Assembly: GCA_041659445.1 (NCBI GenBank)
Contig: JBAZYG010000001.1
Location: 330,001-362,000 of the forward strand
Length of the DNA stretch: 32,000 nucleotides
Reading direction: 5' to 3'
DNA from: Candidatus Saccharimonadota bacterium
GTDB lineage: Archaea; Nanobdellota; Nanobdellia; Pacearchaeales; GW2011-AR1
A program made the translations under genes and the position numbers. Below the pieces are notes generated by a model. The model was given only the letters and a program-made list of their open reading frames with translations. It made no database searches and was not told where the DNA came from. Below are positions 15,380-32,000 of this stretch, in pieces. How positions within the stretch are numbered: position 1 is the first letter of the stretch; every line of letters starts with the position of its first letter.

Positions 15380-15452
15380 ATATATTTTTATCAAAATTTA
15401 ATTTATAAAAGAGAACAACAATTCTTAAAAAGGAATGAATTAATTTGAATTT

Positions 15453-16574: not shown

Positions 16575-16645
16575 TTCTCGACAACAATAATATTTAAAAA
16601 AGAATTTAACCCTTATGAAATATTAAAACAATAAAAGAGAGAAAA

Positions 16646-17227: not shown

Positions 17228-17671
17228 ATGAAAAATTATAATTTAATTCCGCAAGAAAAAAACAATTATTGTCTTTGCTCTGTTATTCAAGCAATTTTTG
17301 ATAAACATGGAAAAAAAATTTCCCAAGATCAAATTGCTCCTCAATTAAATTCTGGAGAAAATGGTTTTTATTTTGATGATTTTAAATTTAAAAATTTTTT
17401 AAATGCTTATGGATTTGTATATAGTTTATTTAAATATGATACAACACCTTTTAATGAACCTGATTTTTTATTGAGTGAAAATTTTGAAAAAGATATTTTT
17501 ATTGCTTGGAATAAGCATGTTGTTTTATTAAATGATTTTAAAGATCCATATATAGAATACATTAATCCAGATAAAGGAATAGTCCAAAAAAAAGAATTAA
17601 GTTCATTATTGTTTGAAATGAGCCAAAATAAATCTGGTTTTTTTGGAGTTATATCAAAAGGTATAATCTAG
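17228..17671 (+). CDS. Stand-alone papain-fold (peptidase C39-like) domain protein
   Basis: PQEKNNYCLCSVIQAIFDKHGKKISQDQIA has Gln about 6 residues before the Cys. NKHVVLLNDFKDPYIEYINPDKG matches the C39-like Q/C/H/D layout. Its ATG directly abuts the preceding stop (TAAATG). Confidence 0.45.
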   Translation: MKNYNLIPQEKNNYCLCSVIQAIFDKHGKKISQDQIAPQLNSGENGFYFDDFKFKNFLNAYGFVYSLFKYDTTPFNEPDFLLSENFEKDIFIAWNKHVVLLNDFKDPYIEYINPDKGIVQKKELSSLLFEMSQNKSGFFGVISKGII

Positions 17672-17710
17672 TATAATTATATTTATAAAACAAAACAATC
17701 TAAAAAGAAA

Positions 17711-18838: not shown

Positions 18839-18839
18839 A

Positions 18840-19325
18840 ATGAATTTAAAAATAATTGTTGCAATATCTGAAAATAATGTCATTGGAATAAATAATAAGA
18901 TTCCTTGGAGAATTCCAGAAGATATGAAAAGATTTAAAGAATTAACAACAGGACATCCAGTAATTATGGGAAGTAAAACTTATTTATCAATTCCTGAAAA
19001 ATTTAGACCATTACCTGACAGAAAAAATATTATACTTTCTAAAAAATTAGAACCCCAGAACGGAATTTACATTGCAAAAAATATAGAAGAAGCATTAAGT
19101 TTTACTGAAAATGAAGATTCATTTGTTATTGGTGGTAGCCAGATTTATGAAGAATTTTTGCCTAGAGCAAATTTTTTAGAAATAACAAAAGTTCACGAAA
19201 CTTTTGATGGAGATTCTTTTTTTCCAGAAATAAATTGGAATGATTGGAAAAAAATTTATGAAAAAAGGCAAAAATCTGAAAAAGGTCTTGAATTTTCTTT
19301 CCAAACATTTAAAAGAAATCTTTAA
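18840..19325 (+). CDS. folA: Dihydrofolate reductase
   Basis: MNLKIIVAISENNVIGINNKIPWRIPEDMKRFKELTTGHPVIMGSKTY plus VIGGSQIYEEFLP. I start at ATG 18840 (a TAAAATG junction with thyA). The ORF-track ATG at 18774 lies inside thyA. Confidence 0.85.
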   Translation: MNLKIIVAISENNVIGINNKIPWRIPEDMKRFKELTTGHPVIMGSKTYLSIPEKFRPLPDRKNIILSKKLEPQNGIYIAKNIEEALSFTENEDSFVIGGSQIYEEFLPRANFLEITKVHETFDGDSFFPEINWNDWKKIYEKRQKSEKGLEFSFQTFKRNL

Positions 19326-19349
19326 AAACAAAATATTTCTCTTAAAAAA

Positions 19350-19679
19350 ATGATAACAAATGAATTAGTTCCAGAATTAGCAAATAAAGAATTTGAAAAA
19401 TTTGTAAAACAAGGCATTGTATTAGTTGATTTTTTTGCAGAATGGTGTATGCCCTGTGTTATGATGGGCCCGGTTATTGAAGATTTAGCTGAAGAATTTT
19501 CTGGAAAAATTAAAGTCGGAAAAATAAATGTTGACGATAATTCTGAACTAGCTTCTAAATTTAATATCTCTTCTATTCCTAATCTTATTTTATTTAAAGA
19601 TGGAAAAATTGTCGAACAATTAATTGGAGCTAGAACTCACGAAGAAATTGCAGAAGTTATAAAAATTTATATTAATTGA
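19350..19679 (+). CDS. trxA: Thioredoxin with a CMPC active site
   Basis: VLVDFFAEWCMPCVMMGPVIEDLAEE, with SIPNLILFKDGK (cis-Pro region). The length is typical of a thioredoxin at 109 aa. Confidence 0.85.
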   Translation: MITNELVPELANKEFEKFVKQGIVLVDFFAEWCMPCVMMGPVIEDLAEEFSGKIKVGKINVDDNSELASKFNISSIPNLILFKDGKIVEQLIGARTHEEIAEVIKIYIN

Positions 19680-19719: not shown

Positions 19720-19998
19720 ATGGTATTTAGCAAATATAGTTTTGGGAAATTAGAAGACTATATTGTCGAATATGATTTTGCTGGAAAAATTTATCACTCA
19801 GTTCCAATTGAAGCATGTAATAAAGAACAAGTTAAAGAATTATTTAAAAGAAATTATGACAAATCTTGTTTAATAAAAAAAATTAAATCCTCTTCAGAAA
19901 TTTGTGATGAGATTGTAGAAAATCTTATGCAAAGCATTAAAAAATCTTTTGAAAAATCAAAATTAGAATTTTCAAAAAAAATTAAAATACTTGTTTAA
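19720..19998 (+). CDS. Hypothetical small protein (92 aa)
   Basis: ORF with a TATA-like TTTTATAC about 28 nt upstream. No motif recognised. Its 3' end overlaps the convergent gene by 17 nt. Confidence 0.4.
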   Translation: MVFSKYSFGKLEDYIVEYDFAGKIYHSVPIEACNKEQVKELFKRNYDKSCLIKKIKSSSEICDEIVENLMQSIKKSFEKSKLEFSKKIKILV

Positions 19999-20455
19999 AA
20001 ACTTCATTCATATAAACCATTGCCCAATTTCTTAAAAATAAAGCTCCTTCAAAAGAATCAACATTTGTTTGAGCATAAATAAATAATTTATTTTTTACAT
20101 TTTGAAATTCTTTTCTTTTTTCATCAGAAAATTTAATATAAGGTGAGGAATAAATTTGACAATTAGAATCTTCTTCATCAAAATATAAACCTCCTCCATA
20201 ATCTCTGCTTATTTGGAAACCAGTTACCAATCCATTTTCATTAGTTTGAATTAAATCTTCCCATCTTGTTGGAAATTTTTCTTTTTTCAACTCTTTACAC
20301 CATTCTTGCGCGACTTCTGGAAAAATTCTCTTAGCAATTTCTTCATCTAATTTTAAAGAAGTGTCTAATAATTTTGGATGAATTGGAATTTGAAAACAAG
20401 TTTCGTGAAGAATAGGCAATTCTTGTTTTTTAAAAAATAATTTTTCAATGTCCAT
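19982..20455 (-). CDS. Hypothetical protein (157 aa)
   Basis: ORF with TATA 27 nt upstream and the shared 22-nt upstream element at 20485..20506. No motif recognised. Confidence 0.45.
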   Translation of the reverse strand: MDIEKLFFKKQELPILHETCFQIPIHPKLLDTSLKLDEEIAKRIFPEVAQEWCKELKKEKFPTRWEDLIQTNENGLVTGFQISRDYGGGLYFDEEDSNCQIYSSPYIKFSDEKRKEFQNVKNKLFIYAQTNVDSFEGALFLRNWAMVYMNEVFKQVF

Positions 20456-20484
20456 GAAAATTTTAAATTATATTTGTTTAAATA

Positions 20485-20506
20485 ATTAATTATGTTCAAT
20501 AAGATA
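20485..20506 (-). promoter_or_regulatory. 22-nt upstream promoter element, copy 1 of 2
   Basis: The + strand reads ATTAATTATGTTCAATAAGATA. It begins exactly 30 nt from the ATG at 20455 and abuts the TATA box. Confidence 0.45.
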
Positions 20507-20527
20507 GTTTAAAATTATATTTTACCT

Positions 20528-20920
20528 CTAATTAATTTTTATATCTTCTAAAATTTCTTCTATAGAACTTTTATGTTTTACAAATTTATGAAATGGAAAA
20601 ATAGAATTTTCTCCTTTTTCTCCAATAAGATAAATTAAAGGTTTTCCAAAAATTTCTTTTGAAGTAATAGCAGAAGCTAATTCTCCATACATATCTGTGC
20701 CTCCACTATCTCCTAATAAAACATAAACATCTGAATTAATAATTGATTTAATTACTTTATATGAATACTTTTGAATCAAAATTTCGTTTTTACTATATGG
20801 TTTCAAAGAAGATTTTTTAGTCCAATCAAAAATTACTTCGTGTCCATGATTTTTTAATTTTTTATACATTCTTTTAACTTCGTCTAATTTAGATGTTCTT
20901 GAGGAAATGTAGAATTTCAT
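20528..20920 (-). CDS. Nucleoside 2-deoxyribosyltransferase-like small Rossmann-type protein (tentative)
   Basis: MKFYISS start, then VYVLLGDSGGTDMYGELASAITS..GKPLIYL. This resembles the G-x-x-x-E-hG-hA-x-x-x-GKP layout of NDT-like proteins. Assignment is by eye only. Confidence 0.4.
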   Translation of the reverse strand: MKFYISSRTSKLDEVKRMYKKLKNHGHEVIFDWTKKSSLKPYSKNEILIQKYSYKVIKSIINSDVYVLLGDSGGTDMYGELASAITSKEIFGKPLIYLIGEKGENSIFPFHKFVKHKSSIEEILEDIKIN

Positions 20921-20949
20921 AAAAAGAGAATAAAAAATTAGTTTTTAAG

Positions 20950-20971
20950 ATTAATTATGCTTAATAAGATA
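20950..20971 (-). promoter_or_regulatory. 22-nt upstream promoter element, copy 2 of 2
   Basis: The + strand reads ATTAATTATGCTTAATAAGATA, 20/22 identical to copy 1. It begins exactly 30 nt from the ATG at 20920 and abuts the TATA box. Confidence 0.45.
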
Positions 20972-21002
20972 CTTTTATAAAAACGTAGTATTACTGAACT
21001 TT

Positions 21003-21773
21003 ATGAAAAAACTAATAGTTTATGATGGCTCTTCAATAGAACCAAATCCAATAAAAAATTTTTTAGATAGGAATGATCTGATTGGAATTCAAAGAAAATA
21101 CTTTATTAATTTATATCCTTTCATGAACTTAAAAAATAAAACCCCTTATTTTATTACAGATTTTAATTTCAAACACCACCAAGATGTTAAAAACATTGAA
21201 ATTGCGAGAAAGATTAAAAAAATAGATAAAAAAAATTTATCATTAATAATATTTGACTCTCATACTGATATGTATCAAGAAGGTGAAGGATATTACCATT
21301 TTGAAAAAAAAGTAACTATGGCTAATTGGATTGCATATATGGTTTCTAGAGAATATTCAAATATTTCATTAATAGGTGTAACAGACTTTACACATTCTTC
21401 TAGACAAAGAAAAGGATTTGAGTATGGTAATTTAAAAAATAAAGTTTCATTTTTTTTAGGTGAAAATTACAAGCAAGAAAAAGATTTTAAAGAATATAAT
21501 GGAGAAATTAAATTAAATAATATTAAAGATTTTTTTGACGCTTCTTTGATGGAAAATAGTTTCATAAGTTTTGATTCAGACGTGAGTTCAGATTTTACAA
21601 ATACAAATTCTAAATTTGCTGGGAGACTAGGAAATTTGGGTTTAGAAGATTGTAAAAAAATAATAAATTATATTAAAGAAAATTCAAATTTAATTGGATT
21701 TTCTTTTTTTGCAACAGGTTTTGCAGAAGCCTTTAACGAAAAAGATCATAATTTAAATTCATTAATAAACTGA
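21003..21773 (+). CDS. Divergent ureohydrolase (arginase/agmatinase)-superfamily-like protein (tentative)
   Basis: IIFDSHTDMY resembles the D-A-H-x-D metal motif, and ISFDSDVSSDF resembles S-x-D-x-D. No clear GGDHS motif is present; only KHHQD lies upstream. Confidence 0.35.
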   Translation: MKKLIVYDGSSIEPNPIKNFLDRNDLIGIQRKYFINLYPFMNLKNKTPYFITDFNFKHHQDVKNIEIARKIKKIDKKNLSLIIFDSHTDMYQEGEGYYHFEKKVTMANWIAYMVSREYSNISLIGVTDFTHSSRQRKGFEYGNLKNKVSFFLGENYKQEKDFKEYNGEIKLNNIKDFFDASLMENSFISFDSDVSSDFTNTNSKFAGRLGNLGLEDCKKIINYIKENSNLIGFSFFATGFAEAFNEKDHNLNSLIN

Positions 21774-21793
21774 AATCTTTAATCCAAAGGTTT

Positions 21794-21801
21794 TTTAAAT
21801 A
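21794..21801 (+). promoter_or_regulatory. TATA box (TTTAAATA) 29 nt upstream of the first partial tRNA-Lys 5' copy
   Basis: It has the same -29 spacing as the protein-gene promoters in this window. No comparable TATA lies at this distance from the intact tRNA at 22017. Confidence 0.45.
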
Positions 21802-21820
21802 TAAATTAATTTAGTCAAAC

Positions 21821-21836
21821 ATGGCTCCGTAGCTCA
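21821..21836 (+). repeat. Partial copy 1 of the tRNA-Lys 5' end (tRNA nt 1-14 plus 2 upstream nt)
   Basis: ATGGCTCCGTAGCTCA is identical to 21945..21960 and 22015..22030. Confidence 0.85.
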
Positions 21837-21933
21837 CGTAAGGAAACGAGGTTTCCTTAACGTTCAACTTTCCTTCGGCACAGAACAGCAATTTCAAAAT
21901 TGCCTCCGAGGAAATTGCAAAAAAGCTACGAGC
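21823..21933 (+). other. Hairpin-rich ~110-nt element closed by pairing of the partial tRNA 5' end with a downstream complement
   Basis: GGCTCCGTAGCT (21823-21834) pairs with AGCTACGAGC (21924-21933) with one bulge. An internal hairpin is CGTAAGGAAAC-GAG-GTTTCCTTAACG (21837-21862). Stem TTTCCTTCGG / CCGAGGAAA (21869-78 / 21906-14) encloses GCAATTTCAAAATTGC (21888-21903). A second AAATTGC at 21912-18 allows alternative pairing. Confidence 0.4.
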
Positions 21934-21940
21934 AAAAAAT

Positions 21941-21969
21941 AAATATGGCTCCGTAGCTCAGCCTGGTCA
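21941..21969 (+). repeat. Partial copy 2 of the tRNA-Lys 5' end (tRNA nt 1-23 plus 6 upstream nt)
   Basis: AAATATGGCTCCGTAGCTCAGCCTGGTCA is identical to 22011..22039. It is followed by an imperfect hairpin GGTCA-AAACTGAAATAAATTTCGTTT-AGAG-TGACC. Confidence 0.85.
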
Positions 21970-22016
21970 AACTGAAATAAATTTCGTTTAGAGTGACCAA
22001 TCAGAACTACAAATAT

Positions 22017-22091
22017 GGCTCCGTAGCTCAGCCTGGTCAGAGCACTGGACTTTTAATCCAGGTGTCGGGGGTTCAAATCCCTCCGGGGCCA
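22017..22091 (+). tRNA. tRNA-Lys (anticodon UUU), 75 nt, no encoded CCA
   Basis: Manual cloverleaf. Acceptor GGCTCCG/CGGGGCC with one G-U pair. D arm GCTC-AGCCTGGTCA-GAGC. Anticodon arm CTGGA-CTTTTAA-TCCAG. Variable loop GTGTC. T arm GGGGG-TTCAAAT-CCCTC. Discriminator A. A T5 run follows. Confidence 0.9.
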
Positions 22092-22158
22092 TTTTTACAT
22101 TTTAATATATATTCTATAATACAGTAATAAATTTAAAGCGTGAACAAATAAAAATATC

Positions 22159-22740
22159 ATGGAAGAAAATAATTTAGAAATAACTGCTAAAGCGGGAGAT
22201 GCTTCTTCTGGGAAAATAATTATTAGTAGAAATGGGGAAATTAAAGAATACCCTACTGTTGTTTTTTCTGAAAAGCAATCAGAAATATTATTTGAAACTT
22301 TAAAAAAAATTTCGAATAAAAATTACAAAAGTTCCAATTTAAAAATAAGCCTCTATACAAAAGAAGACCATAATCATAAAAAAATTTCTTATAGAAGAGA
22401 AGAAATAGATTTTATCTTTGATTACACAAATTTTGAAAAACAAAAAAGAAAAGAAATAAGCCATAGAATCTGGAATCATCTTTCAGATTATTTAATTAAT
22501 ATAGAACATGTTCATCCAAAATCAGAAAATGCATTGTTTTCTAAAGAATATACTTCATTAAATAAAGAAATAACTGTGAAAAGAAAATTATTCAAACCAA
22601 TTTTAAACTTAATAGTAATTAGAGATACTCATTATTTTCCTAAAGATAAAAATGGAAAAGAATTGGATGGAGTAGAAATTTCAAAACCGTTAAACGTCGA
22701 ATTACTGGATGAATTCTTAAGATGTGGAAGAACCTATTAA
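22159..22740 (+). CDS. Hypothetical protein (193 aa)
   Basis: ORF with TTTAAAGC 27 nt upstream of the ATG. No motif recognised. It is the first gene downstream of tRNA-Lys. Confidence 0.5.
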   Translation: MEENNLEITAKAGDASSGKIIISRNGEIKEYPTVVFSEKQSEILFETLKKISNKNYKSSNLKISLYTKEDHNHKKISYRREEIDFIFDYTNFEKQKRKEISHRIWNHLSDYLINIEHVHPKSENALFSKEYTSLNKEITVKRKLFKPILNLIVIRDTHYFPKDKNGKELDGVEISKPLNVELLDEFLRCGRTY

Positions 22741-22787
22741 AACTAAACCACAAAAATCTTTTTAAAGAATTAAAAACCAAGATTTAT

Positions 22788-23132
22788 ATGGAAAAAATAA
22801 TCAAATATTACACTGAAAATTATTTTTATAATCCAAAAGAAAAAGAAACTTCTTTAGTTATAAAATATAAATTTCCAAAAGATTTGAGTAAAGAAATAAA
22901 AAAAGGTATTCGAGCAAGATTGAAAAATTTTGATGGAATCTTAAATTTTTTAGAAAAAAGTGAAAACGTTGAAAAAAAAGGAAATAAACAATTATTTTAT
23001 GTACGCAAACCTTCTTTCTTAAAGATATACAATTTGAAATTAGAATTATCTATTAAAGTTCAAAAAAAAGTTAAAAAATCTGAACTTTTTGATGCAAACA
23101 AATTAGAAAAATACTTGTTATTTGGAATATAA
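22788..23132 (+). CDS. Hypothetical Lys-rich protein (114 aa from the preferred start)
   Basis: The ORF track starts at 22722, overlapping the upstream gene. Met-23 (ATG 22788) has TTTAAAGA exactly 27 nt upstream, so I prefer it. Confidence 0.45.
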   Translation: MEKIIKYYTENYFYNPKEKETSLVIKYKFPKDLSKEIKKGIRARLKNFDGILNFLEKSENVEKKGNKQLFYVRKPSFLKIYNLKLELSIKVQKKVKKSELFDANKLEKYLLFGI

Positions 23133-23143
23133 TTCAAATAAAA

Positions 23144-23359
23144 TTATTTATTAAAAATTTCATTTATTGTGTTTCCAATATCTCCAATTATATTTTGATG
23201 CCATTTCCAGCAGAACACACTTCCGTCTTGACCAATTCCAATATCGCAATCAATTCCTATTTTAGCTGCTTCTGAACTTCCAATTAATCCCCAAACAAGC
23301 AAGACTAAAAGAATAATTCCAATTACTATTATAACAGTATATTTTTTCATTTTATACAT
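23144..23359 (-). CDS. Small secreted or membrane-anchored protein
   Basis: N-terminal hydrophobic helix KKYTVIIVIGIILLVLLVWGLIG, then IDCDIGIGQDGSVFCWKW with 2 Cys. Confidence 0.45.
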   Translation of the reverse strand: MYKMKKYTVIIVIGIILLVLLVWGLIGSSEAAKIGIDCDIGIGQDGSVFCWKWHQNIIGDIGNTINEIFNK

Positions 23360-23367
23360 TCATTATT

Positions 23368-23571
23368 TTATCTTTTCTTAAATAAATCATTCTGATTATT
23401 TCTTCCAACTAGATAATAAACTATTGCAGTAATTATGCTGAATATTATAGCAAGTATTATCCATAACACTTTCATGCCATCAGATAATTTTTTATTATTT
23501 ACAATAACATCGTATATTACCCATATAGCAGCAATAACTGCTAAAATTCCCAGTATTATATTAAAAAACAT
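23368..23571 (-). CDS. Small two-TM membrane protein, PLD-nuclease N-terminal (PLDc_N)-like
   Basis: ILGILAVIAAIWVIYDVIVN....MKVLWIILAIIFSIITAIVYYLVGR matches the typical PLDc_N small-protein pattern. AGGAGG lies upstream. Confidence 0.6.
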   Translation of the reverse strand: MFFNIILGILAVIAAIWVIYDVIVNNKKLSDGMKVLWIILAIIFSIITAIVYYLVGRNNQNDLFKKR

Positions 23572-23589
23572 TTTTCATTTTTCCTCCTT

Positions 23590-23685
23590 TTAAGTTTTCA
23601 TTATATTTTTTCCAGCAGGTCTATTTTTTACAGAACCTTTACCTCCAGGTCTTCCTGATTTTGCTCTTGATTTTGCTGCTTTCAT
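23590..23685 (-). CDS. Candidate unannotated sORF encoding a 31-aa basic peptide
   Basis: My own translation is MKAAKSRAKSGRPGGKGSVKNRPAGKNIMKT. GAGGTGG lies 5 nt upstream of the ATG. It fills the only gap in a co-directional small-gene run and is below the ORF-track length cut-off. Confidence 0.25.
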   Translation of the reverse strand: MKAAKSRAKSGRPGGKGSVKNRPAGKNIMKT

Positions 23686-23695
23686 TCTGCCACCT

Positions 23696-23932
23696 CTACT
23701 TTTTTTTGCCATTATTTCTTTCCTCCTTTTTTATCTTTTCTCGATTAAAAAACCAAACAATAAATAAAATTAATGCAATAAAAACTATAATTGAAAATAA
23801 CAAATTAAATCCGTAATATCCTCCCATCATTCCCCCTCCAAAATTCATCATTCCAAATCCTAAACCTCCAAAGAAGATTAAAACTAGAACAATCAATAAT
23901 ATTATCATTAGAGTGCTATTGTTATTTTTCAT
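23696..23932 (-). CDS. Small two-TM membrane protein with a Gly/Met-rich loop
   Basis: LMIILLIVLVLIFFGGLGFGMMNFGGGMMGGYYGFNLLFSIIVFIALILFIVWFF, then a basic tail. Confidence 0.5.
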   Translation of the reverse strand: MKNNNSTLMIILLIVLVLIFFGGLGFGMMNFGGGMMGGYYGFNLLFSIIVFIALILFIVWFFNREKIKKEERNNGKKK

Positions 23933-23955
23933 TTCATTTAAATAAATTTAATAAA

Positions 23956-24147
23956 TTAAGCTTTTTTTGCTGTATGGGCTATTATTGAAACTATAAGTAA
24001 CACTACAAAAATAATAGTTAGCCATTTTGCTATTGTGTATGAAACCCCTGAAATTATTCCAAATCCAAGTATTCCAGAAACTATAGCTAATATTAAGAAC
24101 AATATTGCCCAAACCAACCAACCGCCTACGCCTTTTTTATTTTTCAT
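23956..24147 (-). CDS. UPF0391/DUF1328-like small membrane protein (YtjA-like)
   Basis: LVWAILFLILAIVSGILGFGIISGVSYTIAKWLTIIFVVLLIVSII matches the YtjA-type pattern (LGFGG...AK...F). GGAGG lies 6 nt upstream of the ATG. Confidence 0.6.
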   Translation of the reverse strand: MKNKKGVGGWLVWAILFLILAIVSGILGFGIISGVSYTIAKWLTIIFVVLLIVSIIAHTAKKA

Positions 24148-24178
24148 TTTTTTCCTCCATTATATTAGAATTATTATT

Positions 24179-24535
24179 TTATAAGTTACGAAGATTCATT
24201 CTTTCCCAGAAATTGGGTTTGTATGTTTGTATACAACTTGTTTTTGACTCTTTGAAATTAATTTTACAATTTTTCTTAGTTTCCTTGTAATCAGAAGAAC
24301 ATTGTTTTGATACATTTCTATCTTTGTCTAAGTTTGAAGCATTACATTGCTCTAGTATATTCTTATTATCTTGGTAACATTCTTGTCTTACTTGTGATGC
24401 TTGTGCAACACAGTTTCCAAAAGTCATATTTTTAGAACTATTTTCAAAATCAGAATCATCTTCTGCCATAACAGTTGCAGATACTAGAACTATAAAAGAC
24501 ATTGCAACGAACAAAATTATTAATTCTTTTTTCAT
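24179..24535 (-). CDS. Secreted Cys-rich protein with a duplicated C-x10-C-x10-C pattern
   Basis: Signal-like N-terminus MKKELIILFVAMSFIVLVSATVMA. Six Cys are spaced x10, x10, x14, x10, x10. Confidence 0.55.
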   Translation of the reverse strand: MKKELIILFVAMSFIVLVSATVMAEDDSDFENSSKNMTFGNCVAQASQVRQECYQDNKNILEQCNASNLDKDRNVSKQCSSDYKETKKNCKINFKESKTSCIQTYKPNFWERMNLRNL

Positions 24536-24590
24536 TAATTAATATATTTTATCTTATTTATATAGTTGTGTTGTATGATTTCATACATCT

Positions 24591-24965
24591 TTAAAACTTC
24601 TGATCTCCACAAAAGTATAATTTTTCGTTTATTATTTTATCATCTTTCCAATGTTGAACATTTACACGATAAATTATTTTTTCTTCTTTGTTTTTATTTT
24701 CAATATTTATAGCCCATTCTGTCATAGAAACATTATCATCAATCCCTCCAAAAGTAACTGATTTTATTTCAGCGCTATTTAGTTTTTCTATTTCTTGAAG
24801 AAATATCATTTCTCTTTTTCTATTTTGTTCTTTTCCATGCATAGGGGGATTTCCATTTACTTGTATAATCACATTATCTCCATAATATTTTTCAAAGGCT
24901 TCCATAATTTTACCTTCTTTAATTAGATTATTCAGTTTTTCCACGTTATTTTTTAATTTTATCAT
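24591..24965 (-). CDS. NTF2-like / SnoaL-like fold protein
   Basis: MEAFEKYYGDNVIIQVNGNPPMHGKEQNRKRE...SMTEWAINI...VNVQHWKDDKIINEKLYF resembles SnoaL-like small proteins. Confidence 0.5.
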   Translation of the reverse strand: MIKLKNNVEKLNNLIKEGKIMEAFEKYYGDNVIIQVNGNPPMHGKEQNRKREMIFLQEIEKLNSAEIKSVTFGGIDDNVSMTEWAINIENKNKEEKIIYRVNVQHWKDDKIINEKLYFCGDQKF

Positions 24966-25041
24966 CTTTGGTTTATTGTATAAATTTATTTTATTTTTTT
25001 AAGAAAACTAAACCCTCTGGAAGGATATAATTAATTTCTAA

Positions 25042-25314
25042 TTATTTATGTTCCAGAGAGTCAATTTTTAAATTGAGGTTGTTTTTTTGCATCATAATTT
25101 TTTGCATCATAAAAGATTCAGGATTATTAGCAATAGGAATAAATTTCATTCGAGTCTCTTTAGTTAGTCCAATAATAGGTGTTATTTTTTGCACCTTAGC
25201 ACTAACAACTAGTCCATCTTCTTCTCTTCTTGTTATCCATCTGTAACTTCCTTTTTGTCTTATTGCATTCCTGTATTTTATTTTAACTACTTGCTCATTT
25301 TTTGTAGTTTTCAT
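25042..25314 (-). CDS. Hypothetical small basic protein (90 aa)
   Basis: The ORF lies 5 nt downstream of the repeat-protein gene on the same strand. No motif recognised. Confidence 0.4.
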   Translation of the reverse strand: MKTTKNEQVVKIKYRNAIRQKGSYRWITRREEDGLVVSAKVQKITPIIGLTKETRMKFIPIANNPESFMMQKIMMQKNNLNLKIDSLEHK

Positions 25315-25319
25315 TTTCT

Positions 25320-25676
25320 TTAGATAAAAATAAAAGAAGCCCCAATTGCTAAAACTGCTACAATCAATAAAAATACTGTCAAGCCTATACTTGGACCATC
25401 TCTTATTTCTCTTCTATTAGCAGTTAATTCATCGTTTCTCAATCTATTTCCTCCTAAAATTTGATCTGCCTTAAATCTTCTTTCTCCAGTTAGTTCGTCA
25501 TTTCTGATTCGATTATCTCTTGTTGTCTTGCTTGCCCTTACCCATCTATCTATATTAGCTCTTCTTTCTGTAGTTAGTTTATCATTTCTGATTCGATTAT
25601 CATCCATGGTATTATCTGCTGCTTCCCTTCTATCCATAGTTGCTAGATCATTTTCCATTCTTTGTTTATTTGTCAT
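25320..25676 (-). CDS. Tail-anchored membrane protein with three NR[IL]RND[EK]LT-x-[EN]RR repeats
   Basis: The preferred start is ATG 25676 (MTNKQ...), which has GGAGG 9 nt upstream; the ORF track starts at 25712. The repeats are DNRIRNDKLTTERR, DNRIRNDELTGERR and GNRLRNDELTANRR. The single C-terminal TM is GLTVFLLIVAVLAIGASFIFI. Confidence 0.55.
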   Translation of the reverse strand: MTNKQRMENDLATMDRREAADNTMDDNRIRNDKLTTERRANIDRWVRASKTTRDNRIRNDELTGERRFKADQILGGNRLRNDELTANRREIRDGPSIGLTVFLLIVAVLAIGASFIFI

Positions 25677-25781
25677 TTTATTTTTGCCTCCATTATAATA
25701 TATTTTAGACAATGAAGTATATATGCTAGAGCAGTAGTTGAGTATAACTGTTGTATGAGAAGAGACTTTTATTGTAAATAA

Positions 25782-26537
25782 TTAAACAACTTTTTTAGAA
25801 TAATCCCAAAGAATATTATAAAGATCAAGATATTCTTTTGCAACAATATCATTTTCTATTATAATTGTATAAATTGGATGAATCCATAGGGTAATATAAA
25901 CAGAATCATTACAAACTATTTGTGTTATTTGAGAAGTTTTCGATTGTTGATTTTTAGGCAAAAGTTTTGCTTCTGTAAATTTTAAATTACTAAGCGCTTT
26001 AATTTCTTCTTCTGGAAGTTTATAAAAAAGCAGTTTAAGTTCAATTTGTTTTTTTATTCTTTCGAGATGAAAGGAATGCATTAATTTATCATTAAGAACG
26101 TTGATTATGCTCTCATTTTCTGCAAGACCATAAATCCAGATTTCTGATTTTTTTTCTAATAAACTAAATAAAATGCTTTTTATAGCATTTAATCCTTCGA
26201 GAGTATAAACTTTTGGAGTCTGACCCGACACATAAGTTGTTTTTATATAGTTCATTGCAGATTTCAAGTTCTCTAACTTATCTTTTTCTTCATTAATAAT
26301 TAAATCAGTTGATAGAGCAGCAAATACTTGTTTTCCTTCTTTATTAGATAAATAAACTAAATTTCTTTCTTTAAGTTTTGTTAAAGTATCATATACATTA
26401 GCCCTATGCATTCGTGTTCTTTTTGAAACTTGTGTTGCAGTAGATTCTTTATTTTTTAACAAGTCTAAATAGATTATTGTTTGCATTTTAGGTATGCCTA
26501 CAGATTCAAAAGCCTTTAGTATTTGTTCTTCAGTCAT
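25782..26537 (-). CDS. TrmB-family transcriptional regulator
   Basis: The N-terminal winged-helix region is FESVGIPKMQTIIYLDLLKNKESTATQVSKRTRMHRANVYDTLTKLKERNLVY, followed by a ~170-aa effector-like domain. TATATAAT lies 27 nt upstream of the ATG. Confidence 0.75.
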   Translation of the reverse strand: MTEEQILKAFESVGIPKMQTIIYLDLLKNKESTATQVSKRTRMHRANVYDTLTKLKERNLVYLSNKEGKQVFAALSTDLIINEEKDKLENLKSAMNYIKTTYVSGQTPKVYTLEGLNAIKSILFSLLEKKSEIWIYGLAENESIINVLNDKLMHSFHLERIKKQIELKLLFYKLPEEEIKALSNLKFTEAKLLPKNQQSKTSQITQIVCNDSVYITLWIHPIYTIIIENDIVAKEYLDLYNILWDYSKKVV

Positions 26538-26761: not shown

Positions 26762-26968
26762 ATGCATATTCTACAACCAAAACACATCAAACTCTCTGAA
26801 AAAGAGGCTCAAAAAATACTTGAAGAACTAAATGTTTCTAAATCGCAACTTCCAAAAATTTATTCAACTGATGTTGCATTGCCTGAAGGTTGCCAAGTCG
26901 GAGATATTATAAAAATTGAAAGAAAAGATGACGAGAAAATTTCTGTCTATTTTCGGGTTGTAGTTTAA
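26762..26968 (+). CDS. rpoH: DNA-directed RNA polymerase subunit H (Rpo5)
   Basis: PKHIKLSEKEAQKILEELNVSKSQLPKIYSTDVA...GDIIKIERKD...YFRVVV is the RpoH/Rpb5 C-terminal-domain pattern. It sits immediately upstream of rpoB. Confidence 0.85.
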   Translation: MHILQPKHIKLSEKEAQKILEELNVSKSQLPKIYSTDVALPEGCQVGDIIKIERKDDEKISVYFRVVV

Positions 26969-26969
26969 A

Positions 26970-29900
26970 ATGGAAAAACATTTAGTTATTAAAAGATATT
27001 TAGAAAATCATTCACTTGTAGAATCAAATATTACTTCTTTTAATGATTTTATCGAATATCGAATTCAAGAAATTGTAAATGAAATTAATGAAACTATCGA
27101 GAACGAAGACTTTGAAATAAAACTTGGGAAAATTAGTATAGGAAATCCCATAATCACAGAGGCTGATGGAAGCACTTCTAGAATTTTACCTTATGAAGCA
27201 AGAATTAGAAACTTAACTTATTCTGCACCAATTTTTCTTGAACTAACTGTAAAGAAAGATGGAAATGTTGATTCAGAAATTGTAGAAATTGGAAGAATAC
27301 CAATCATGGTAAAAAGTAAATTTTGTAATACTAAAGAAATGGATAAAGAAACATTAACTTCAAATTATGAAGATCCAATGGACCCAGGCGGATACTTTAT
27401 TATTAAAGGAAACGAAAGAGTTATGGTAATGGCAGAAGACCTTGCTGAAAACCAACCATTCATCGAGGAAAATAAAAAAAATGAAGTTACTTTAAAATTA
27501 TTTTCATTAAAAGGAACTTATAGAATTCCAATCACACTTACAGAAAGTAAAAAAGGACTTTTTGAAGTTTCATTTAGTAGATTTAAAGATATTCCTGCAA
27601 TAATTCTTTTAAAAGCATTAGGATTAATAAAAGAATCTGACATTTCAAAATACATTGGAAAAGAAACCGACGATGTTATTGTTAATTTATATGAATTTGT
27701 TAACATTGCAACAAAAGAAGATGCAATGCTTTACATTGCAGAAAAAGCAAACTTGCAAGGAACTAAAAAAGAAATTTTAGATAGAGTTAGACAAAGAATT
27801 GATTCTTATTTTTTCCCACACATTGGACAATTAAAAGATGACAGAATAAAAAAAGCAGTTACATTATGTAAATTAATTAAACAATTTTTAATTGCAAGAA
27901 ATAATCCTGAATTAAGAACAGATAAAGACCATTATGCAAATAAAAGAGTTAGACTTTCTGGAGATTTATTAGCTACTTTATTCAGAGTTAATCTTGGAAT
28001 TTTAATAAGAGATATACAATATTCTTTACAAAAATCAACAAAAAGAAAAAAATATTTTTCAATAAAAGTTCTTGCTAAATCAACATTATTTTCACATAGA
28101 GTTGAATCTGCAATCGCAACTGGTTCTTGGACAGGTGAAAGAAGTGGAGTTACACAAAATATGGATAAAACAAATTATCTTGCAACAATTTCTCAATTGC
28201 AAAAAGTCTCAAGTATGCTCGAGAGTGGACAAGAAAATTTCAAAGCAAGAACATTGCACCCAACACATTATGGTAGATTCTGCCCTATTGAAACTCCAGA
28301 AGGAACTGAAATTGGATTAAGAAAAAATTTATGTATCTTAAGTAAAGTTTCAACAAGAGTTGATTTAAATAAAGATAAATTTTTCAAAGATTTGGAAACA
28401 CTTGGATTAGATAAAGAACGTGTCGACGGCTTTGAAGTGTTTTTTAATGGATTATATATTGGAAATGTTCCAAATCCAAAAACATTTGTTAAAACAATTC
28501 GAGAAAAAAGAAGAAATGATGAATTACCAGAACAATTAAGTATTAGAGAAGATGAAGGATTGCAAACAATAAATATTTCTACTGAACCAGGTAGAGTTTT
28601 AAGACCATTGATTATTGTAGAAAATGGCTCACCAAGATTAAAAAATGAACATTTAATACAATTAGAACAAAGAGAAATTGCTTGGAAAGATTTAATCAAA
28701 AAAGGAATTCTTGAATACATCGACGCTGCTGAAGAAGAAGAAACATTAATTGCACTTTCAGAACAAAATTTAATTCCTGAAAATACTCATATGGAAATTG
28801 ATAGCATTAGTTTAATGGGTGTTGTTACAAGTTTGGTTCCTTACGGAAATCACGACCAGAGTTCAAGATTAAACAGAGGAAGTAAAACACAAAAGCAGGC
28901 TTTAGGATTATACGCTGCAAATTATTTATCTAGATTAGATACAGATGTTTCTATTTTACAATATCCCCAAAAACCAATTGTTAGAAGTTTTATTTATGAC
29001 ACTTTGAAAGCGTATCCTGCAGGACAAAATTTAGTTGTAGCAATTATGACTTATGAAGGTTATAATATGGAAGATGCTTTAATTTTAAATAAAGGAAGTT
29101 TAGATAGAGGAGTCGGAAGAAGTTTTTATTTCAGACCTTACTCTGCTGTTGAAATGAATTATGCAGGAGGATTAAGAGATGAAATCGTTGCTCCTGACAA
29201 AGATACTTCTGGATATAAAACAGAAGAAAGTTATAGACTTTTAGACGACGACGGAATTATTTATCCTGAAGCAGATGTTAACGAAGGAGAAGTTTTAATT
29301 GGTAAAACATCGCCTCCAAAATTCTTATCTGAAGCTAGAGAAATTTCTGTTAGAACTAAAAAAGATTCAAGTGTAACATTAAGACAAGAAGAAAAAGGAA
29401 TTGTCGAGGCTGTTTTTGTAACTGAAGATGATGAAGGAAATAAAGTTGTTCAAGTTAAAACAAGAGATCCTAGAATTCCTGAATTAGGAGATAAATTTGC
29501 TACTTCACATGGACAGAAAGGAGTTGTTGGTGCAATTGTTCCTGAAGAAGATATTCCATTCACTATCTCTGGAATAAGACCTGATGTTATTTTCAATCCA
29601 CACGGACTTCCAAGTCGTATGACTGTTGGTTATTTATTAGAATTACTTGCAGGTAAATTAGGATGTGCAAAAGGAGAAGTAATTGAAGGTACTGCATTTA
29701 GTGGTGAAAGCAAACAAAGCATTGAAAATCAATTAATAGATTTAGGATTCAGATACGACGGTAAAGAAACAATGTATCACGGAATTACTGGTAAAAGAAT
29801 GATTTCAAAAATCTTCGTCGGAAATTTGTATTATTTGAAACTTAAATATATGGTTGGAAATAAAATTCACGGAAGAGCTTCTGGTAAAGTTGCATTATTA

Positions 29901-30218
29901 ACAAGACAACCTATTGAAGGTAGATCAAGAGGAGGAGCATTAAGATTAGGAGAAATGGAACAACAAGCATTAGTTGCACACGGAGCATCTCTTTTATTAA
30001 AAGAAAGATATGATTCTGATAAAGTTGTTTTACCAATTTGTTCTAAGTGCGGTTCTATTGCAATCGACGACAATATTAGAAATAAAAAAATATGCCATCA
30101 ATGTGGTTCTGAAGAAGTTGAACCTATTGAAGTATCTTATGCATTCAAACTTTTAGTTGAAGAATTACAAGGATTACATATTAATACTCAATTTAAATTA
30201 AAAAACAAATATGAATAA
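26970..30218 (+). CDS. rpoB: DNA-directed RNA polymerase subunit B, unsplit (1082 aa)
   Basis: GGYFIIKGNERV, HYGRFCPIETPEGTEIGL, NHDQSSRLNRGS, TSHGQKGV, MTVGYLLELLAGK, GGALRLGEMEQQAL, and a C-terminal zinc ribbon CSKCGS...CHQCGS. Confidence 0.95.
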   Translation: MEKHLVIKRYLENHSLVESNITSFNDFIEYRIQEIVNEINETIENEDFEIKLGKISIGNPIITEADGSTSRILPYEARIRNLTYSAPIFLELTVKKDGNVDSEIVEIGRIPIMVKSKFCNTKEMDKETLTSNYEDPMDPGGYFIIKGNERVMVMAEDLAENQPFIEENKKNEVTLKLFSLKGTYRIPITLTESKKGLFEVSFSRFKDIPAIILLKALGLIKESDISKYIGKETDDVIVNLYEFVNIATKEDAMLYIAEKANLQGTKKEILDRVRQRIDSYFFPHIGQLKDDRIKKAVTLCKLIKQFLIARNNPELRTDKDHYANKRVRLSGDLLATLFRVNLGILIRDIQYSLQKSTKRKKYFSIKVLAKSTLFSHRVESAIATGSWTGERSGVTQNMDKTNYLATISQLQKVSSMLESGQENFKARTLHPTHYGRFCPIETPEGTEIGLRKNLCILSKVSTRVDLNKDKFFKDLETLGLDKERVDGFEVFFNGLYIGNVPNPKTFVKTIREKRRNDELPEQLSIREDEGLQTINISTEPGRVLRPLIIVENGSPRLKNEHLIQLEQREIAWKDLIKKGILEYIDAAEEEETLIALSEQNLIPENTHMEIDSISLMGVVTSLVPYGNHDQSSRLNRGSKTQKQALGLYAANYLSRLDTDVSILQYPQKPIVRSFIYDTLKAYPAGQNLVVAIMTYEGYNMEDALILNKGSLDRGVGRSFYFRPYSAVEMNYAGGLRDEIVAPDKDTSGYKTEESYRLLDDDGIIYPEADVNEGEVLIGKTSPPKFLSEAREISVRTKKDSSVTLRQEEKGIVEAVFVTEDDEGNKVVQVKTRDPRIPELGDKFATSHGQKGVVGAIVPEEDIPFTISGIRPDVIFNPHGLPSRMTVGYLLELLAGKLGCAKGEVIEGTAFSGESKQSIENQLIDLGFRYDGKETMYHGITGKRMISKIFVGNLYYLKLKYMVGNKIHGRASGKVALLTRQPIEGRSRGGALRLGEMEQQALVAHGASLLLKERYDSDKVVLPICSKCGSIAIDDNIRNKKICHQCGSEEVEPIEVSYAFKLLVEELQGLHINTQFKLKNKYE

Positions 30219-30219
30219 A

Positions 30220-30501
30220 ATGAATACAGAACAAGAAACAAAATTAATAGATATGTCTAAAAAGAAATTAGAAGGTATTTTATTAAAGGATTTTATTAAA
30301 ATCAGAAATTCACTAGAAGATTTAGATCTTAATTATGGAAACCCTATATTAAATAAAAATCAATTAATAAGAAGCAATCAAAGATATAATAAAAATATAC
30401 TTAATTTCAGAGAAGAATATGGTTTAACCTTTACAGAAATACAAGAAAAATATGAAAAATTATTACCAAAAATAAATGAATACCTAGGAGAACAAAACTA
30501 A
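30220..30501 (+). CDS. Orphan ORF 1 inside the RNA polymerase operon (93 aa; 96 aa if started at 30211)
   Basis: A start at 30220 gives the same TAAAATG stop-restart junction used at the other operon boundaries. The alternative ATG at 30211 overlaps the end of rpoB. The protein is predicted helical, with no motif recognised. Confidence 0.5.
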   Translation: MNTEQETKLIDMSKKKLEGILLKDFIKIRNSLEDLDLNYGNPILNKNQLIRSNQRYNKNILNFREEYGLTFTEIQEKYEKLLPKINEYLGEQN

Positions 30502-30502
30502 A

Positions 30503-30757
30503 ATGGTATACAAAGAATTAATAAAATTTGATAATAAAAAAGATTATGAAAAAGCTAGAGAATATTTAAGAGCTTTAATTAAAAATACTGAAGGGTCATG
30601 CGTTTTTGATGATGAAAGAGATCATTACGAAAGTGTTAATAAAGAAATGAAAATAAATTTAGACAACAAAAAATTTGCAATTTCTGCAGAATGCAAATAT
30701 TTAGATGATCAAAGTTTTTTAGAAAAAAAATTAAATGAATTCAAAAAAACAAAATGA
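30503..30757 (+). CDS. Orphan ORF 2 inside the RNA polymerase operon (84 aa)
   Basis: TAAAATG junction with ORF 1 and an ATGA overlap with ORF 3. No motif recognised. Confidence 0.5.
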   Translation: MVYKELIKFDNKKDYEKAREYLRALIKNTEGSCVFDDERDHYESVNKEMKINLDNKKFAISAECKYLDDQSFLEKKLNEFKKTK

Positions 30758-30996
30758 CAAATCAAAGTTATCAAACAATAGAAGCAAATGAAAAAGGTTA
30801 TGATGAAATGACTTCTTTTTTAGGGCAAAGCGGGTTTAACTTAGATAGAACTTCTAAAAATAAAAATTATTGGAGAAAGGGTGATTATGTTGTTAAACTT
30901 ATATCCTCTAAAAATAAAATTGAACTGATTAATGTTGATGATTTCACAAGAAAAAGTTTAGAATATATAGCACAACAGGAGAAAATAAGAAACTAA
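30754..30996 (+). CDS. Orphan ORF 3 inside the RNA polymerase operon (80 aa)
   Basis: ATGA overlap with ORF 2 and a TAAAATG junction with rpoA'. Its N-terminus is loosely similar to that of ORF 2. Confidence 0.5.
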   Translation: MTNQSYQTIEANEKGYDEMTSFLGQSGFNLDRTSKNKNYWRKGDYVVKLISSKNKIELINVDDFTRKSLEYIAQQEKIRN

Positions 30997-30997
30997 A

Positions 30998-32000
30998 ATG
31001 ACAGAAAAACCAATAAGAAAAAAAATAGGAGTAATAAGATTTTCACTCTTGAGTCCAGAAGATATCAAAAATATTTCTGTTGCAAAAGTTGTTACACCTG
31101 AACTTTATGATATTGATGGTTATCCTGTCGACGGTGGATTAATGGATTTGAGATTAGGAGCAATTGACCCAGGAGTAAGATGTAGAACTTGTGGTGGAAG
31201 AATCAAAGAATGTTTAGGACATCCAGGAAGTATTGATTTAGCTAAACCAGTTATTCATTTAAATTATGTTCCTTTAATTGAAATGTGTTTAAGATCTTTT
31301 TGTAAAGACTGTGGAAAATTAATGATTAATGAAAAAGATTTATCAAAATATTCTCCAAGTATGAGAGTAAAGAAAGCAAAAGATGCTAAAAAATGTCCTT
31401 ATTGTCAAGCTGCACAAGAAAAATTCAGATTAGATAAACCAACTAATTTTTACAAAGGAAAATCAAGAATTTTTCCAACAGAAATAAGAGAAATTTTGGT
31501 TAAAATTCCCGACGAGGAATTGAAAAAAGCAGGAGTTAATGCAAGAACATGTCGACCTGAATGGGCAATTTTAACTTCATTATTAGTTCCGCCTGTTACT
31601 GTAAGACCTTCAATTATTTTAGAAACAGGTGAAAGAAGTGAAGATGATTTAACACACAAACTTTCAGATATTATTCGAGCAAATCAAAGACTTTGGGAAA
31701 ATTTGAATGCAGGTGCACCTGAAGTTATTATCGAGGATTTATGGGATTTATTACAATATCATATTACAACTTTTTTTGATAACACAATTACAAGAGTTCC
31801 TCCAGCAAGACATCGTTCTGGACAACCATTAAAAACAATTACAGAAAGAATCAAGGGTAAAGAAGGAAGAATTAGAAAAAATATTGCAGGTAAAAGAGTA
31901 AATTATTCTGGTAGAACAGTTATTAGTCCAGATCCAAATTTAAAAATAAACGAAGTGGGAATTCCTTATGAAATCGCAAGAATTGTAACTGTTTTAGAAA
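30998..32000 (+). CDS. rpoA1: DNA-directed RNA polymerase subunit A' (Rpo1N), 3'-truncated by the window edge
   Basis: My own translation from ATG 30998 is MTEKPIRKKIGVIRFSLLSPEDIKNISVAKV...CRTCGGRIKECLGHPGSIDLAKPVIH...LVPPVTVRPS...GKEGRIRKNIAGKRVNYSGRTVISPDP. The frame is open to nt 32000. It is absent from the ORF track because no stop codon lies in the window. Confidence 0.95.
   Translation, partial: MTEKPIRKKIGVIRFSLLSPEDIKNISVAKVVTPELYDIDGYPVDGGLMDLRLGAIDPGVRCRTCGGRIKECLGHPGSIDLAKPVIHLNYVPLIEMCLRSFCKDCGKLMINEKDLSKYSPSMRVKKAKDAKKCPYCQAAQEKFRLDKPTNFYKGKSRIFPTEIREILVKIPDEELKKAGVNARTCRPEWAILTSLLVPPVTVRPSIILETGERSEDDLTHKLSDIIRANQRLWENLNAGAPEVIIEDLWDLLQYHITTFFDNTITRVPPARHRSGQPLKTITERIKGKEGRIRKNIAGKRVNYSGRTVISPDPNLKINEVGIPYEIARIVTVLE

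Follow-up and report, generated by a model that had tools for sequence, protein, structure and literature searches.

The window analysed here is a stretch of 32,000 nucleotides (nt) of contig JBAZYG010000001.1, from a genome placed in the Pacearchaeales. It contains three small genes (open reading frames ORF1, ORF2 and ORF3) between rpoB and rpoA, the two largest RNA polymerase genes. These three genes are probably cassettes in a translationally coupled, mobile and variable accessory array at the Pacearchaeota rpoB/rpoA junction. Across relatives, anything from no small gene to four or more is found at the junction, drawn from some 60 sequence families, and the cassettes are gained and lost as exact units that run from one copy of the heptamer TAAAATG to the next. 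One family can occupy different positions in the array as well as other junctions of the operon, and at least one cassette has moved recently between lineages. Few gene adjacencies in archaea are as conserved as that of the two largest RNA polymerase genes, and the junction between them is usually regarded as untouchable, since the stoichiometry of the subunits depends on that adjacency. Literature searches found no published description of a cassette array at rpoB/rpoA. What is new here is a cassette array and turnover hotspot of known kinds that carries three new protein families.

The RNA polymerase operon in the window

The features of the operon are listed below. L numbers denote loci, L001 being the window's own contig, and P numbers denote family proteins.

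26762-26968, + strand: rpoH (Rpo5), 68 amino acids (aa), heads the operon; Pfam RNA_pol_Rpb5_C, E 1.1e-17
26970-30218, + strand: rpoB, 1082 aa, unsplit in the ORF list; Rpb2_1 to Rpb2_7 domains on the identical gene in L001
30216-30222, + strand: rpoB/ORF1 stop-start junction, TAAAATG
30220-30501, + strand: ORF1, cassette 1, 93 aa; an alternative ATG at 30211 gives 96 aa
30499-30505, + strand: ORF1/ORF2 stop-start junction, TAAAATG, within the AAACTAAAATG copy at 30495-30505
30503-30757, + strand: ORF2, cassette 2, 84 aa
30754-30757, + strand: overlap of the ORF2 stop and the ORF3 start, ATGA
30754-30996, + strand: ORF3, cassette 3, 80 aa
30990-31000, + strand: second AAACTAAAATG copy, which includes the ORF3/rpoA TAAAATG at 30994-31000
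30998-32000, + strand: 5′ part of rpoA, from its translation; the complete gene is a fused A′+A″ of 1161 aa

An earlier reading of this DNA, made from the sequence only, had reported three small ORFs between rpoB and rpoA with TAAAATG and ATGA junctions. Both the ORFs and the junctions are present as described, the former by their coordinates and the ORF list. Together the three ORFs tile the 780 nt between rpoB and rpoA completely, the four junctions from rpoB to rpoA having spacings of +1, +1, −4 and +1 nt. No minus-strand ORF of at least 40 aa lies beneath the insert in the ORF list. A scan of the window places TAAAATG at 26966 (the rpoH/rpoB junction, 26966-26972), 30216, 30499 and 30994. 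The heptamer is not enriched window-wide (18 found versus 23 expected); its significance is positional. The 11-nt direct repeat AAACTAAAATG brackets the ORF2+ORF3 pair.

The statement that the insert has no T-tract terminator needs amending. T6 runs exist within ORF2 (30715) and ORF3 (30816), but rpoB and rpoA contain runs that are just as long or longer, and a signal scan found no transcription signals that set the insert apart from these two genes. There was also no RNA family match for the insert. The downstream gene had been labelled a separate rpoA′. It starts at 30998, not 30999, and is a fused, full-length rpoA, which carries the Rpb1_1 to Rpb1_5 domains in its complete copy in L001. 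In most archaea the A′/A″ pair is split. Here and in the relatives inspected, rpoA is one gene of 1161-1165 aa with Rpb1_1 to Rpb1_5 (window 30998-32000; L001 7701-11186; L007 5903-9394; L008 5893-9390).

The rpoB/rpoA junction in relatives

Relatives were sampled by anchoring on the RpoB C-terminus, blind to downstream content. The sample comprises 80 species-representative genome loci and 80 metagenome loci with RpoB identities of 80-90%, of which 77 and 75 were scored, respectively. An insert is present in 37/77 genomes (137-1137 nt, with ORFs on the + strand), and rpoB and rpoA are directly coupled in the other 40. Metagenome contigs have an insert in 52/75 cases (150-1015 nt) and none in 23/75. 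In 20 non-redundant relatives without an insert, TAAAATG joins rpoB directly to rpoA. Junction content differs between relatives from about 95% rpoB nucleotide identity downwards. The insertion described from the window alone is real, but it is one state of a widespread variable cassette array and not a one-off event.

Most occupied loci have one cassette. Two are found in L080, L132, L150, L127, L147, L166 and L169, three in the window, L089 and L148, and four or more in L072 and L083. The junction proteins number 102 distinct sequences with a median length of 84 aa, and 96 of them are no longer than 120 aa. They fall into 62 BLAST clusters, 51 of which are singletons. At least four cysteines are found in 28/102 and a transmembrane-like segment in six. 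One cassette encodes a 323-aa protein with an OB-fold and an HD domain, and none of the other cassettes has a Pfam match. Searches of PADLOC, PHROGs, Pfam and phage genomes (tblastn) with seven cassettes other than ORF1-3 gave no match either. About half of the relatives have no insert and the content of the rest is heterogeneous; thus, the cassettes are not core polymerase subunits. The earlier suggestion of lineage-specific polymerase subunits is weakened by the same two facts, the different proteins of other close relatives including membrane proteins and the OB+HD protein.

Other junctions of the super-operon were compared in the genome set. Expansions of at least 130 nt occur at rpoB/rpoA in 38/78 loci (L001 included), at rpoA/nusA in 16/59, at nusA/rps12 in 18/39, and at rpoH/rpoB in only 1/72. 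As rpoH/rpoB has the heptamer and is still almost never occupied, the heptamer alone does not make a hotspot. At rpoA/nusA and nusA/rps12 the usual spacer is 40-100 nt, and each of these junctions has its own contents, the pools being unmixed except for the ORF2 family. Several super-operon junctions thus take in genes, and rpoB/rpoA is the most tightly coupled of them.

A second recurrent family without a Pfam match was seen at nusA/rps12. Its members are 96-125 aa long, start with MKKxIxxKxYxIxYxG and carry the motif ERIYY. They lie at the following positions.

L010, 9909-10286: nusA/rps12 family member
L041, 10191-10511: nusA/rps12 family member
L062, 9926-10267: nusA/rps12 family member
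L068, 10072-10380: nusA/rps12 family member
L073, 9906-10196: nusA/rps12 family member
L086, 5318-5653: nusA/rps12 family member

The rpoA/nusA junction is variable across L003-L082, the 16/59 expanded cases having 130-973 nt with unrelated ORFs of 50-245 aa (e.g., L063 9689-10120, L065 7025-7459, and L078 9813-10550, the last on the minus strand and in opposite orientation). Two loci have unusual gene calls. In L111 a Cys-rich cassette reads past the rpoA start. In L171 (427-3680) the gene calls divide rpoB in two (366 and 685 aa), whereas the related L172 has a single rpoB gene of 1084 aa; the division is either real or due to a frameshift or an assembly error.

Junction spacing and probable translational coupling

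A census of junctions was made on the non-redundant loci. Between rpoB and the first cassette (n = 80), TAAAATG is found 49 times, spacers of 0-10 nt 22 times, longer spacers eight times, a TAATG-type junction once and an ATGA-type junction never. Between cassettes (n = 16) the counts are 11 for TAAAATG, four for ATGA and one for a spacer of more than 10 nt. The last cassette is joined to rpoA (n = 80) by TAAAATG in 33 cases, by an ATGA-type junction in 24, by spacers of 0-10 nt in 14, by longer spacers in six and by other overlaps in three. The extended junction consensus is AAW-TAA-A-ATG-A, and 59% of the cassettes end in Lys or Asn versus 19% expected from composition.

Reinitiation after termination depends on overlapping genes or very small gaps, and has collapsed once the distance reaches about 20 nt (PMC10666635; PMC6728339). 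Given this published rule, the overlaps and 1-nt spacers of the array fit a chain of translation-dependent genes. The array is likely translated as a coupled chain in which each gene depends on the previous one, and the spacing suggests that the products could be made in near-stoichiometric amounts with the polymerase subunits. Tight coupling of the ORFs, as first proposed, is upheld in that an internal promoter would not fit into the spacing. The lack of a spacer also suggests that the cassettes are promoterless.

Gain, loss and transfer of cassettes

A clean indel separates two loci whose rpoB ends are 95% identical: relative to L046, L150 has exactly one additional cassette, of the ORF1 family, set between two copies of TAAAATG. 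The ORF2 homologue also changes its place in the array: it opens the arrays of L083, L084 and L085, and takes the second position in the window and in L089 and the third in L148. L049 (5893-6087) shares with L129/L143 (3455-3640) a Cys-rich cassette of 61-64 aa at 95-97% DNA identity, whereas the flanks (600 nt each of rpoB and rpoA) are 78-81% identical, and the identity shifts at the cassette borders. This pattern marks a recent horizontal transfer confined to the cassette. Homologous exchange mediated by the flanks was considered as the sole cause of the linkage to the operon and rejected, as the L049/L129 flanks show no raised identity. If homology is used in exchange, it would be limited to the last and first few tens of nt of the neighbouring genes.

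Other homologous cassette pairs are more diverged than their flanks, which is consistent with fast vertical evolution. The ratio of nonsynonymous to synonymous substitution rates (dN/dS) is 0.14-0.63 in eleven cassette pairs, the ORF2 relatives among them giving 0.21-0.42, compared with about 0.01-0.1 in the adjacent rpoB end. By these ratios the cassettes are under purifying but relaxed selection, and the absence of selection or conservation that had been named as a possible objection is not seen. A 137-nt remnant between rpoB and rpoA in L068 (5900-6038), with an ORF of 20 codons only, looks like a decayed cassette.

ORF1, ORF2 and ORF3 are genes of small recurrent families

In this stretch of 22% G+C, the probability of a stop is 0.108 per codon, and a stop-free run of at least 80 codons arose in 8/2000 shuffles. 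Three stop-free frames of at least 80 codons tile the whole interval, and two independent assemblies (ENA and Logan) contain the identical array. ORF1, ORF2 and ORF3 are genuine protein-coding genes, as the sequence-only reading had assumed, and the dN/dS values below 1 agree with this. That reading recognised none of the three sequences, and database searches do not either. Pfam gave nothing at E ≤ 0.01 for ORF1-3 or for 19 members of the ORF2 family, PHROGs and PADLOC gave no family for ORF1-3, and the profiles of the three families found no sequence relatives in the PDB. There was no match to the known archaeal RNA polymerase subunits (Rpo3-Rpo13) or basal factors in Pfam or the PDB. Each of the three proteins is the lone member of its own 90% cluster. 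The term orphan is nonetheless inappropriate, as each belongs to a small recurrent family.

Three possible origins or relationships were considered and rejected. A viral origin found no support: tblastn against 50,697 phage records gave no match for ORF1, ORF2 or ORF3, PHROGs had no family for them, and BFVD gave no useful structural neighbour. The similarity of ORF3 to a Pth2-like ORF in L007 (18/42 residues identical) was judged a chance local likeness over a short stretch, with no PTH2 Pfam match. A relationship of the ORF1 family to acyl-carrier proteins is unsupported, the PDB profile match reaching only E ~0.08 and the phosphopantetheine Ser motif being absent; the ORF1-family alignment has non-significant matches to many acyl-carrier-protein chains in its C-terminal half.

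The ORF1 family is helical-looking and has the C-terminal motif YGLxFPE(I/L)xxxYExLLPxINKYLG. Homologues occur at the rpoB/rpoA junction of L135/L142, L150, L132 and L072, and the alignment with them favours the ORF1 start at 30220. The dN/dS of ORF1 versus L135 is about 0.43, near saturation. The ORF2 family has 20 members by local iteration, and an exhaustive HMMER search of 1.84 billion representatives found just 16 proteins at E ≤ 0.001. Its conserved motifs are Y15 and L73-E74 (LEKKLNEF). Contexts were recovered for 15/16 representatives, together with extra members in the loci, and all lie in the rpoB-rpoA-nusA-rps12 operon. The family is found at rpoB/rpoA in the window, L032, L041, L072 (three copies), L082, L083, L084, L085, L088, L089, L090 (two copies), L134, L148, L153, L175 and L176, at nusA/rps12 in L086 and L087, and at rps12/rps7 in L008. 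The L175 and L008 proteins are 47% identical and occupy different junctions (rpoB/rpoA and rps12/rps7). The ORF3 family (P0020-P0028 plus L037, L078, L080, L147 and L157) has the motif RTIELSxxVD, and all seven of the contexts seen are at rpoB/rpoA. Homologues at unrelated loci had been named as a finding that would speak against a link with the polymerase genes; every recovered context is within the rpoB-rpoA-nusA-rps12 operon.

Net charge across the three families ranges from −6 to +8 and so does not indicate nucleic-acid binding. For a TBP-like domain in particular, a net charge of −6 to +6 among family members lends no support to binding of nucleic acid by the concave sheet. A 25-aa C-terminal tail (GKxxKEGFxIxxxDxKLVxxLR) is common to the ORF1-family protein of L132 (3456-3827) and the ORF2-family protein of L090 (282-602, P0018). 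Because of this tail, BLAST clustering single-linked the ORF1 and ORF2 families. The tail might be a shared peptide that binds a partner, or neighbouring cassettes may have recombined to produce it.

Predicted fold of ORF2 and ORF3

Structures were predicted with AlphaFold2 (AF2). The ORF2 model has a pLDDT of 74.8 and a pTM of 0.62; the ORF3 model, from a 10-sequence family alignment, has a pLDDT of 87.3 and a pTM of 0.76. Their predicted elements are as follows.

ORF2: strands at residues 4-8, 33-36, 39-44, 48-54 and 59-64; helices at 12-27 and 67-83
ORF3: strands at residues 6-10, 29-32, 38-42, 45-50 and 55-59; helices at 13-25 and 63-79

Both models have the same order of elements, beta-alpha-beta4-alpha, as in the fold of the TATA-binding protein (TBP). 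The ORF2 and ORF3 family profiles align collinearly with an E-value of 0.003-0.008 in a single comparison. A duplicated fold had been suspected from the N-termini. The identical predicted topology and the collinear profiles support a common fold; descent from one ancestor is plausible but not proven.

Foldseek against the PDB gave nothing significant (best E 0.016; query TM-score, TMq, 0.4-0.64). The high-probability neighbours are domains of the TBP-like fold, namely the phosphoglucomutase C-terminal domain, the N-terminal, substrate-binding domain of RNase H3 (3vn5, TMq 0.56) and the CPSF/Integrator C-terminal dimerisation domains (TMq 0.64); the OGG N-terminal domain is a further neighbour with this fold. 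The likeness to TBP itself is weak (1vol_B, probability 0.54, TMq 0.42). Pfam scans of ORF2, ORF3 and the 19-member family found no TBP (PF00352) at E ≤ 1, and PDB profile searches found neither TBP nor RNase H3 at E ≤ 10. A HicA- or dsRBD-like toxin was rejected for ORF2 and ORF3, there being no Pfam match and the models having an extra N-terminal strand plus four further strands in TBP-like order.

Possible function and maintenance of the array

In the reading that we favour, the cassettes would lack promoters of their own and be expressed from the rpoH-rpoB mRNA by termination-reinitiation. A ribosome that ends rpoB would restart on each cassette and then on rpoA, and the A-rich junction (AAW-TAA-A-ATG-A) would preserve this coupling. 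The same junction may also provide the microhomology by which cassettes recombine in and out, along with two conserved gene ends, the final 25 nt of rpoB and the initial 30 nt of rpoA. The products would be dispensable accessory small proteins with mixed roles that ride on a constitutively expressed essential operon. ORF1 is probably a small helical protein, and ORF2 and ORF3 may be distant paralogues made of a single TBP-like domain, a predicted ligand- or partner-binding module.

Several points weigh against this reading. Expression and coupling are read from spacing, and the exchange mechanism from one clear transfer and one clean indel. We identified no recombinase or specific recombination site, and rpoH/rpoB is almost never occupied even though it has the same heptamer. 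A pool of hitch-hikers also leaves unexplained why the ORF1-3 families were found nowhere outside the rpoB-rpoA-nusA-rps12 operon, a confinement that holds though ORF2 relatives sit at three different junctions.

This confinement also speaks for the main rival explanation, which we regard as possible but unlikely. The ORF1-3 families could be optional partners of the transcription machinery, made in step with RpoB and RpoA and binding the polymerase or nucleic-acid substrates, e.g., at the clamp site where the RpoB C-terminus meets the RpoA N-terminus. Their fast turnover could then reflect conflict, such as shielding the polymerase from viral or host inhibitors. The strict operon linkage was found in a context-blind search, in the ORF2 representatives and the seven ORF3 contexts alike, and the 47%-identical pair at two junctions (L175 and L008) fits the same idea. 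Such a role would also suit the predicted TBP-like fold, with structural neighbours such as the substrate-binding domain of RNase H3 and the C-terminal dimerisation domains of CPSF/Integrator, but Foldseek reached no significance and no sequence match to TBP or polymerase subunits was found. Paralogues often stand in tandem, as do three copies in L072, two copies in L090 and the ORF2+ORF3 pair of the window, ORF1-type and ORF2-type proteins share the C-terminal tail seen in L132 and P0018, and tightly coupled gene pairs are enriched for subunits of one complex (PMC10666635). However, cassettes are absent from about half of the close relatives and unrelated in the rest, some of them being of membrane or secreted type, and the charge range gives no consistent nucleic-acid-binding signature. 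The linkage could also stem from the mode of spreading and not from function.

We consider rather improbable a version that combines mobility with a role at the polymerase. It would be a recombinase-free cassette dock in which (AAW)TAAAATG serves as both coupler and recombination core for a hypervariable, horizontally shared pool of small proteins produced in step with the polymerase. At least the ORF1 family and the TBP-like ORF2 and ORF3 families would act on the polymerase or its templates, e.g., as guards or modulators in virus or host-cell conflicts of these episymbionts.

There is little to recommend the idea that the cassettes are selfish addiction (toxin-antitoxin-like) or defence/anti-defence genes placed in an essential operon where deletion is costly. 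The patchy distribution, rapid turnover and single horizontal transfer would be expected of such genes, and an imprecise deletion at this location would be lethal. Nevertheless, clean unit loss occurs, most arrays consist of a single gene with no toxin-antidote pair, and the initial impression of a HicA-like protein was upheld neither by the Pfam scan nor by the predicted fold. PADLOC, PHROGs, Pfam and phage tblastn were negative for ORF1-3 and the seven other cassettes, so the toxin-antitoxin or anti-defence label offered by the sequence-only reading has no sequence support. Finally, a chance ORF, annotation artefact or assembly chimera is excluded: only small size and the lack of database matches point to it, against three frames that tile 780 nt at the given stop probability, an identical array in independent assemblies, conservation within families, dN/dS below 1 and a confident AF2 model from a 10-sequence family alignment.

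Comparison with known systems

The array that we favour resembles integron arrays in several respects. In both, promoterless small genes lie head to tail behind one upstream promoter, units are gained, lost and reordered, the pool is diverse and mostly of unknown function, and a short conserved sequence marks each boundary. In contrast to integrons, no integrase or recombinase domain was found among the 30 window ORFs scanned or the genes recorded on L001. An attC-type imperfect hairpin is likewise absent; the cassette boundaries are 1 nt or overlaps, and the inverted repeats in 30100-31100 are weak A/T-rich pairs away from the cassette ends. Here the array sits inside an essential coupled operon, between two subunits of one enzyme, and the boundary element is the stop and start codons themselves.

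Chromosomal hotspots of gene turnover between core genes have been described (Oliveira et al., 2017; PMC5635113). As in these, an interval between two persistent core genes concentrates gain and loss and varies among close relatives, and 62 clusters among 102 proteins at one junction flanked by core genes qualify it as such a hotspot. Those hotspots, however, are intergenic regions or islands, often with mobile elements and with promoters of their own. At rpoB/rpoA the site is a coupled operon junction of 1 nt that takes single-gene inserts of about 250 nt, and the downstream essential gene has to keep its polarity and coupling.

Thermococcales have monopartite TBP-domain proteins (Brindefalk et al., 2013; PMC3597702). 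Like the predicted ORF2 and ORF3 proteins, these are stand-alone archaeal proteins of 80-100 aa with one beta-alpha-beta4-alpha domain and unknown function. They are detectable with TBP (PF00352) profiles, whereas ORF2 and ORF3 are not, and no operon linkage is reported for them. Gene pairs that overlap or lie close together and are coupled by termination-reinitiation (Huber et al., 2019, 2023; PMC6728339, PMC10666635) are likewise unidirectional, with a −4 overlap or near-zero spacer, and RNA polymerase genes are typical of such complex-subunit pairs. By comparison, the dominant spacing here is +1 (TAAAATG), not −4 or −1, and the coupled chain is broken by variable genes that do not encode subunits.

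The free-standing homing-endonuclease genes of T-even phages lie between conserved genes. They share with the cassettes an optional and precise insertion between essential genes, a patchy distribution and horizontal spread. The cassettes differ from them in being too small and too diverse, with no nuclease domain, and there was no co-conversion of the flanks in the L049/L129 transfer.

Other features of the window

A compact deoxynucleotide cluster occupies 12252-19679 and encodes NrdR, ribonucleotide reductase, two dCTP-deaminase-like genes, a C39-peptidase-like ORF, thymidylate synthase, DHFR and thioredoxin. The DHFR gene of this cluster is joined by a TAAAATG at 18836. The ThyA match covers 375 aa against a profile of 266 positions, pointing to an insertion of some 100 aa. 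At 24179-25712 (minus strand) and at 19720-23132 lie runs of ORFs of 90-256 aa that have no Pfam family; this genome has many orphan genes, which are not confined to the polymerase operon. A divergent TrmB-family regulator (25782-26537, minus strand) faces the rpoH promoter region. About 1 kb at 23132-24179 has no ORF of at least 90 aa, a GC skew of −0.39 and no Rfam match at the gathering threshold. The only RNA gene detected in the window is a tRNA-Lys (UUU) at 22016-22092.

Implications

The rpoB/rpoA junction is a preferred slot for exchangeable small genes in over half of a DPANN lineage. In ultra-small genomes with few promoters, the accessory repertoire can grow by threading genes into coupled operons, and a 7-nt stop-start signal can delimit mobile units. 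Its roughly 60 families of small proteins form a compact natural library that can be aligned, and three or more of these families are tied strictly to the transcription operon. The junction is a concrete place to test how new genes acquire expression, and whether optional small partners serve uncultivated archaea to tune or protect the polymerase.

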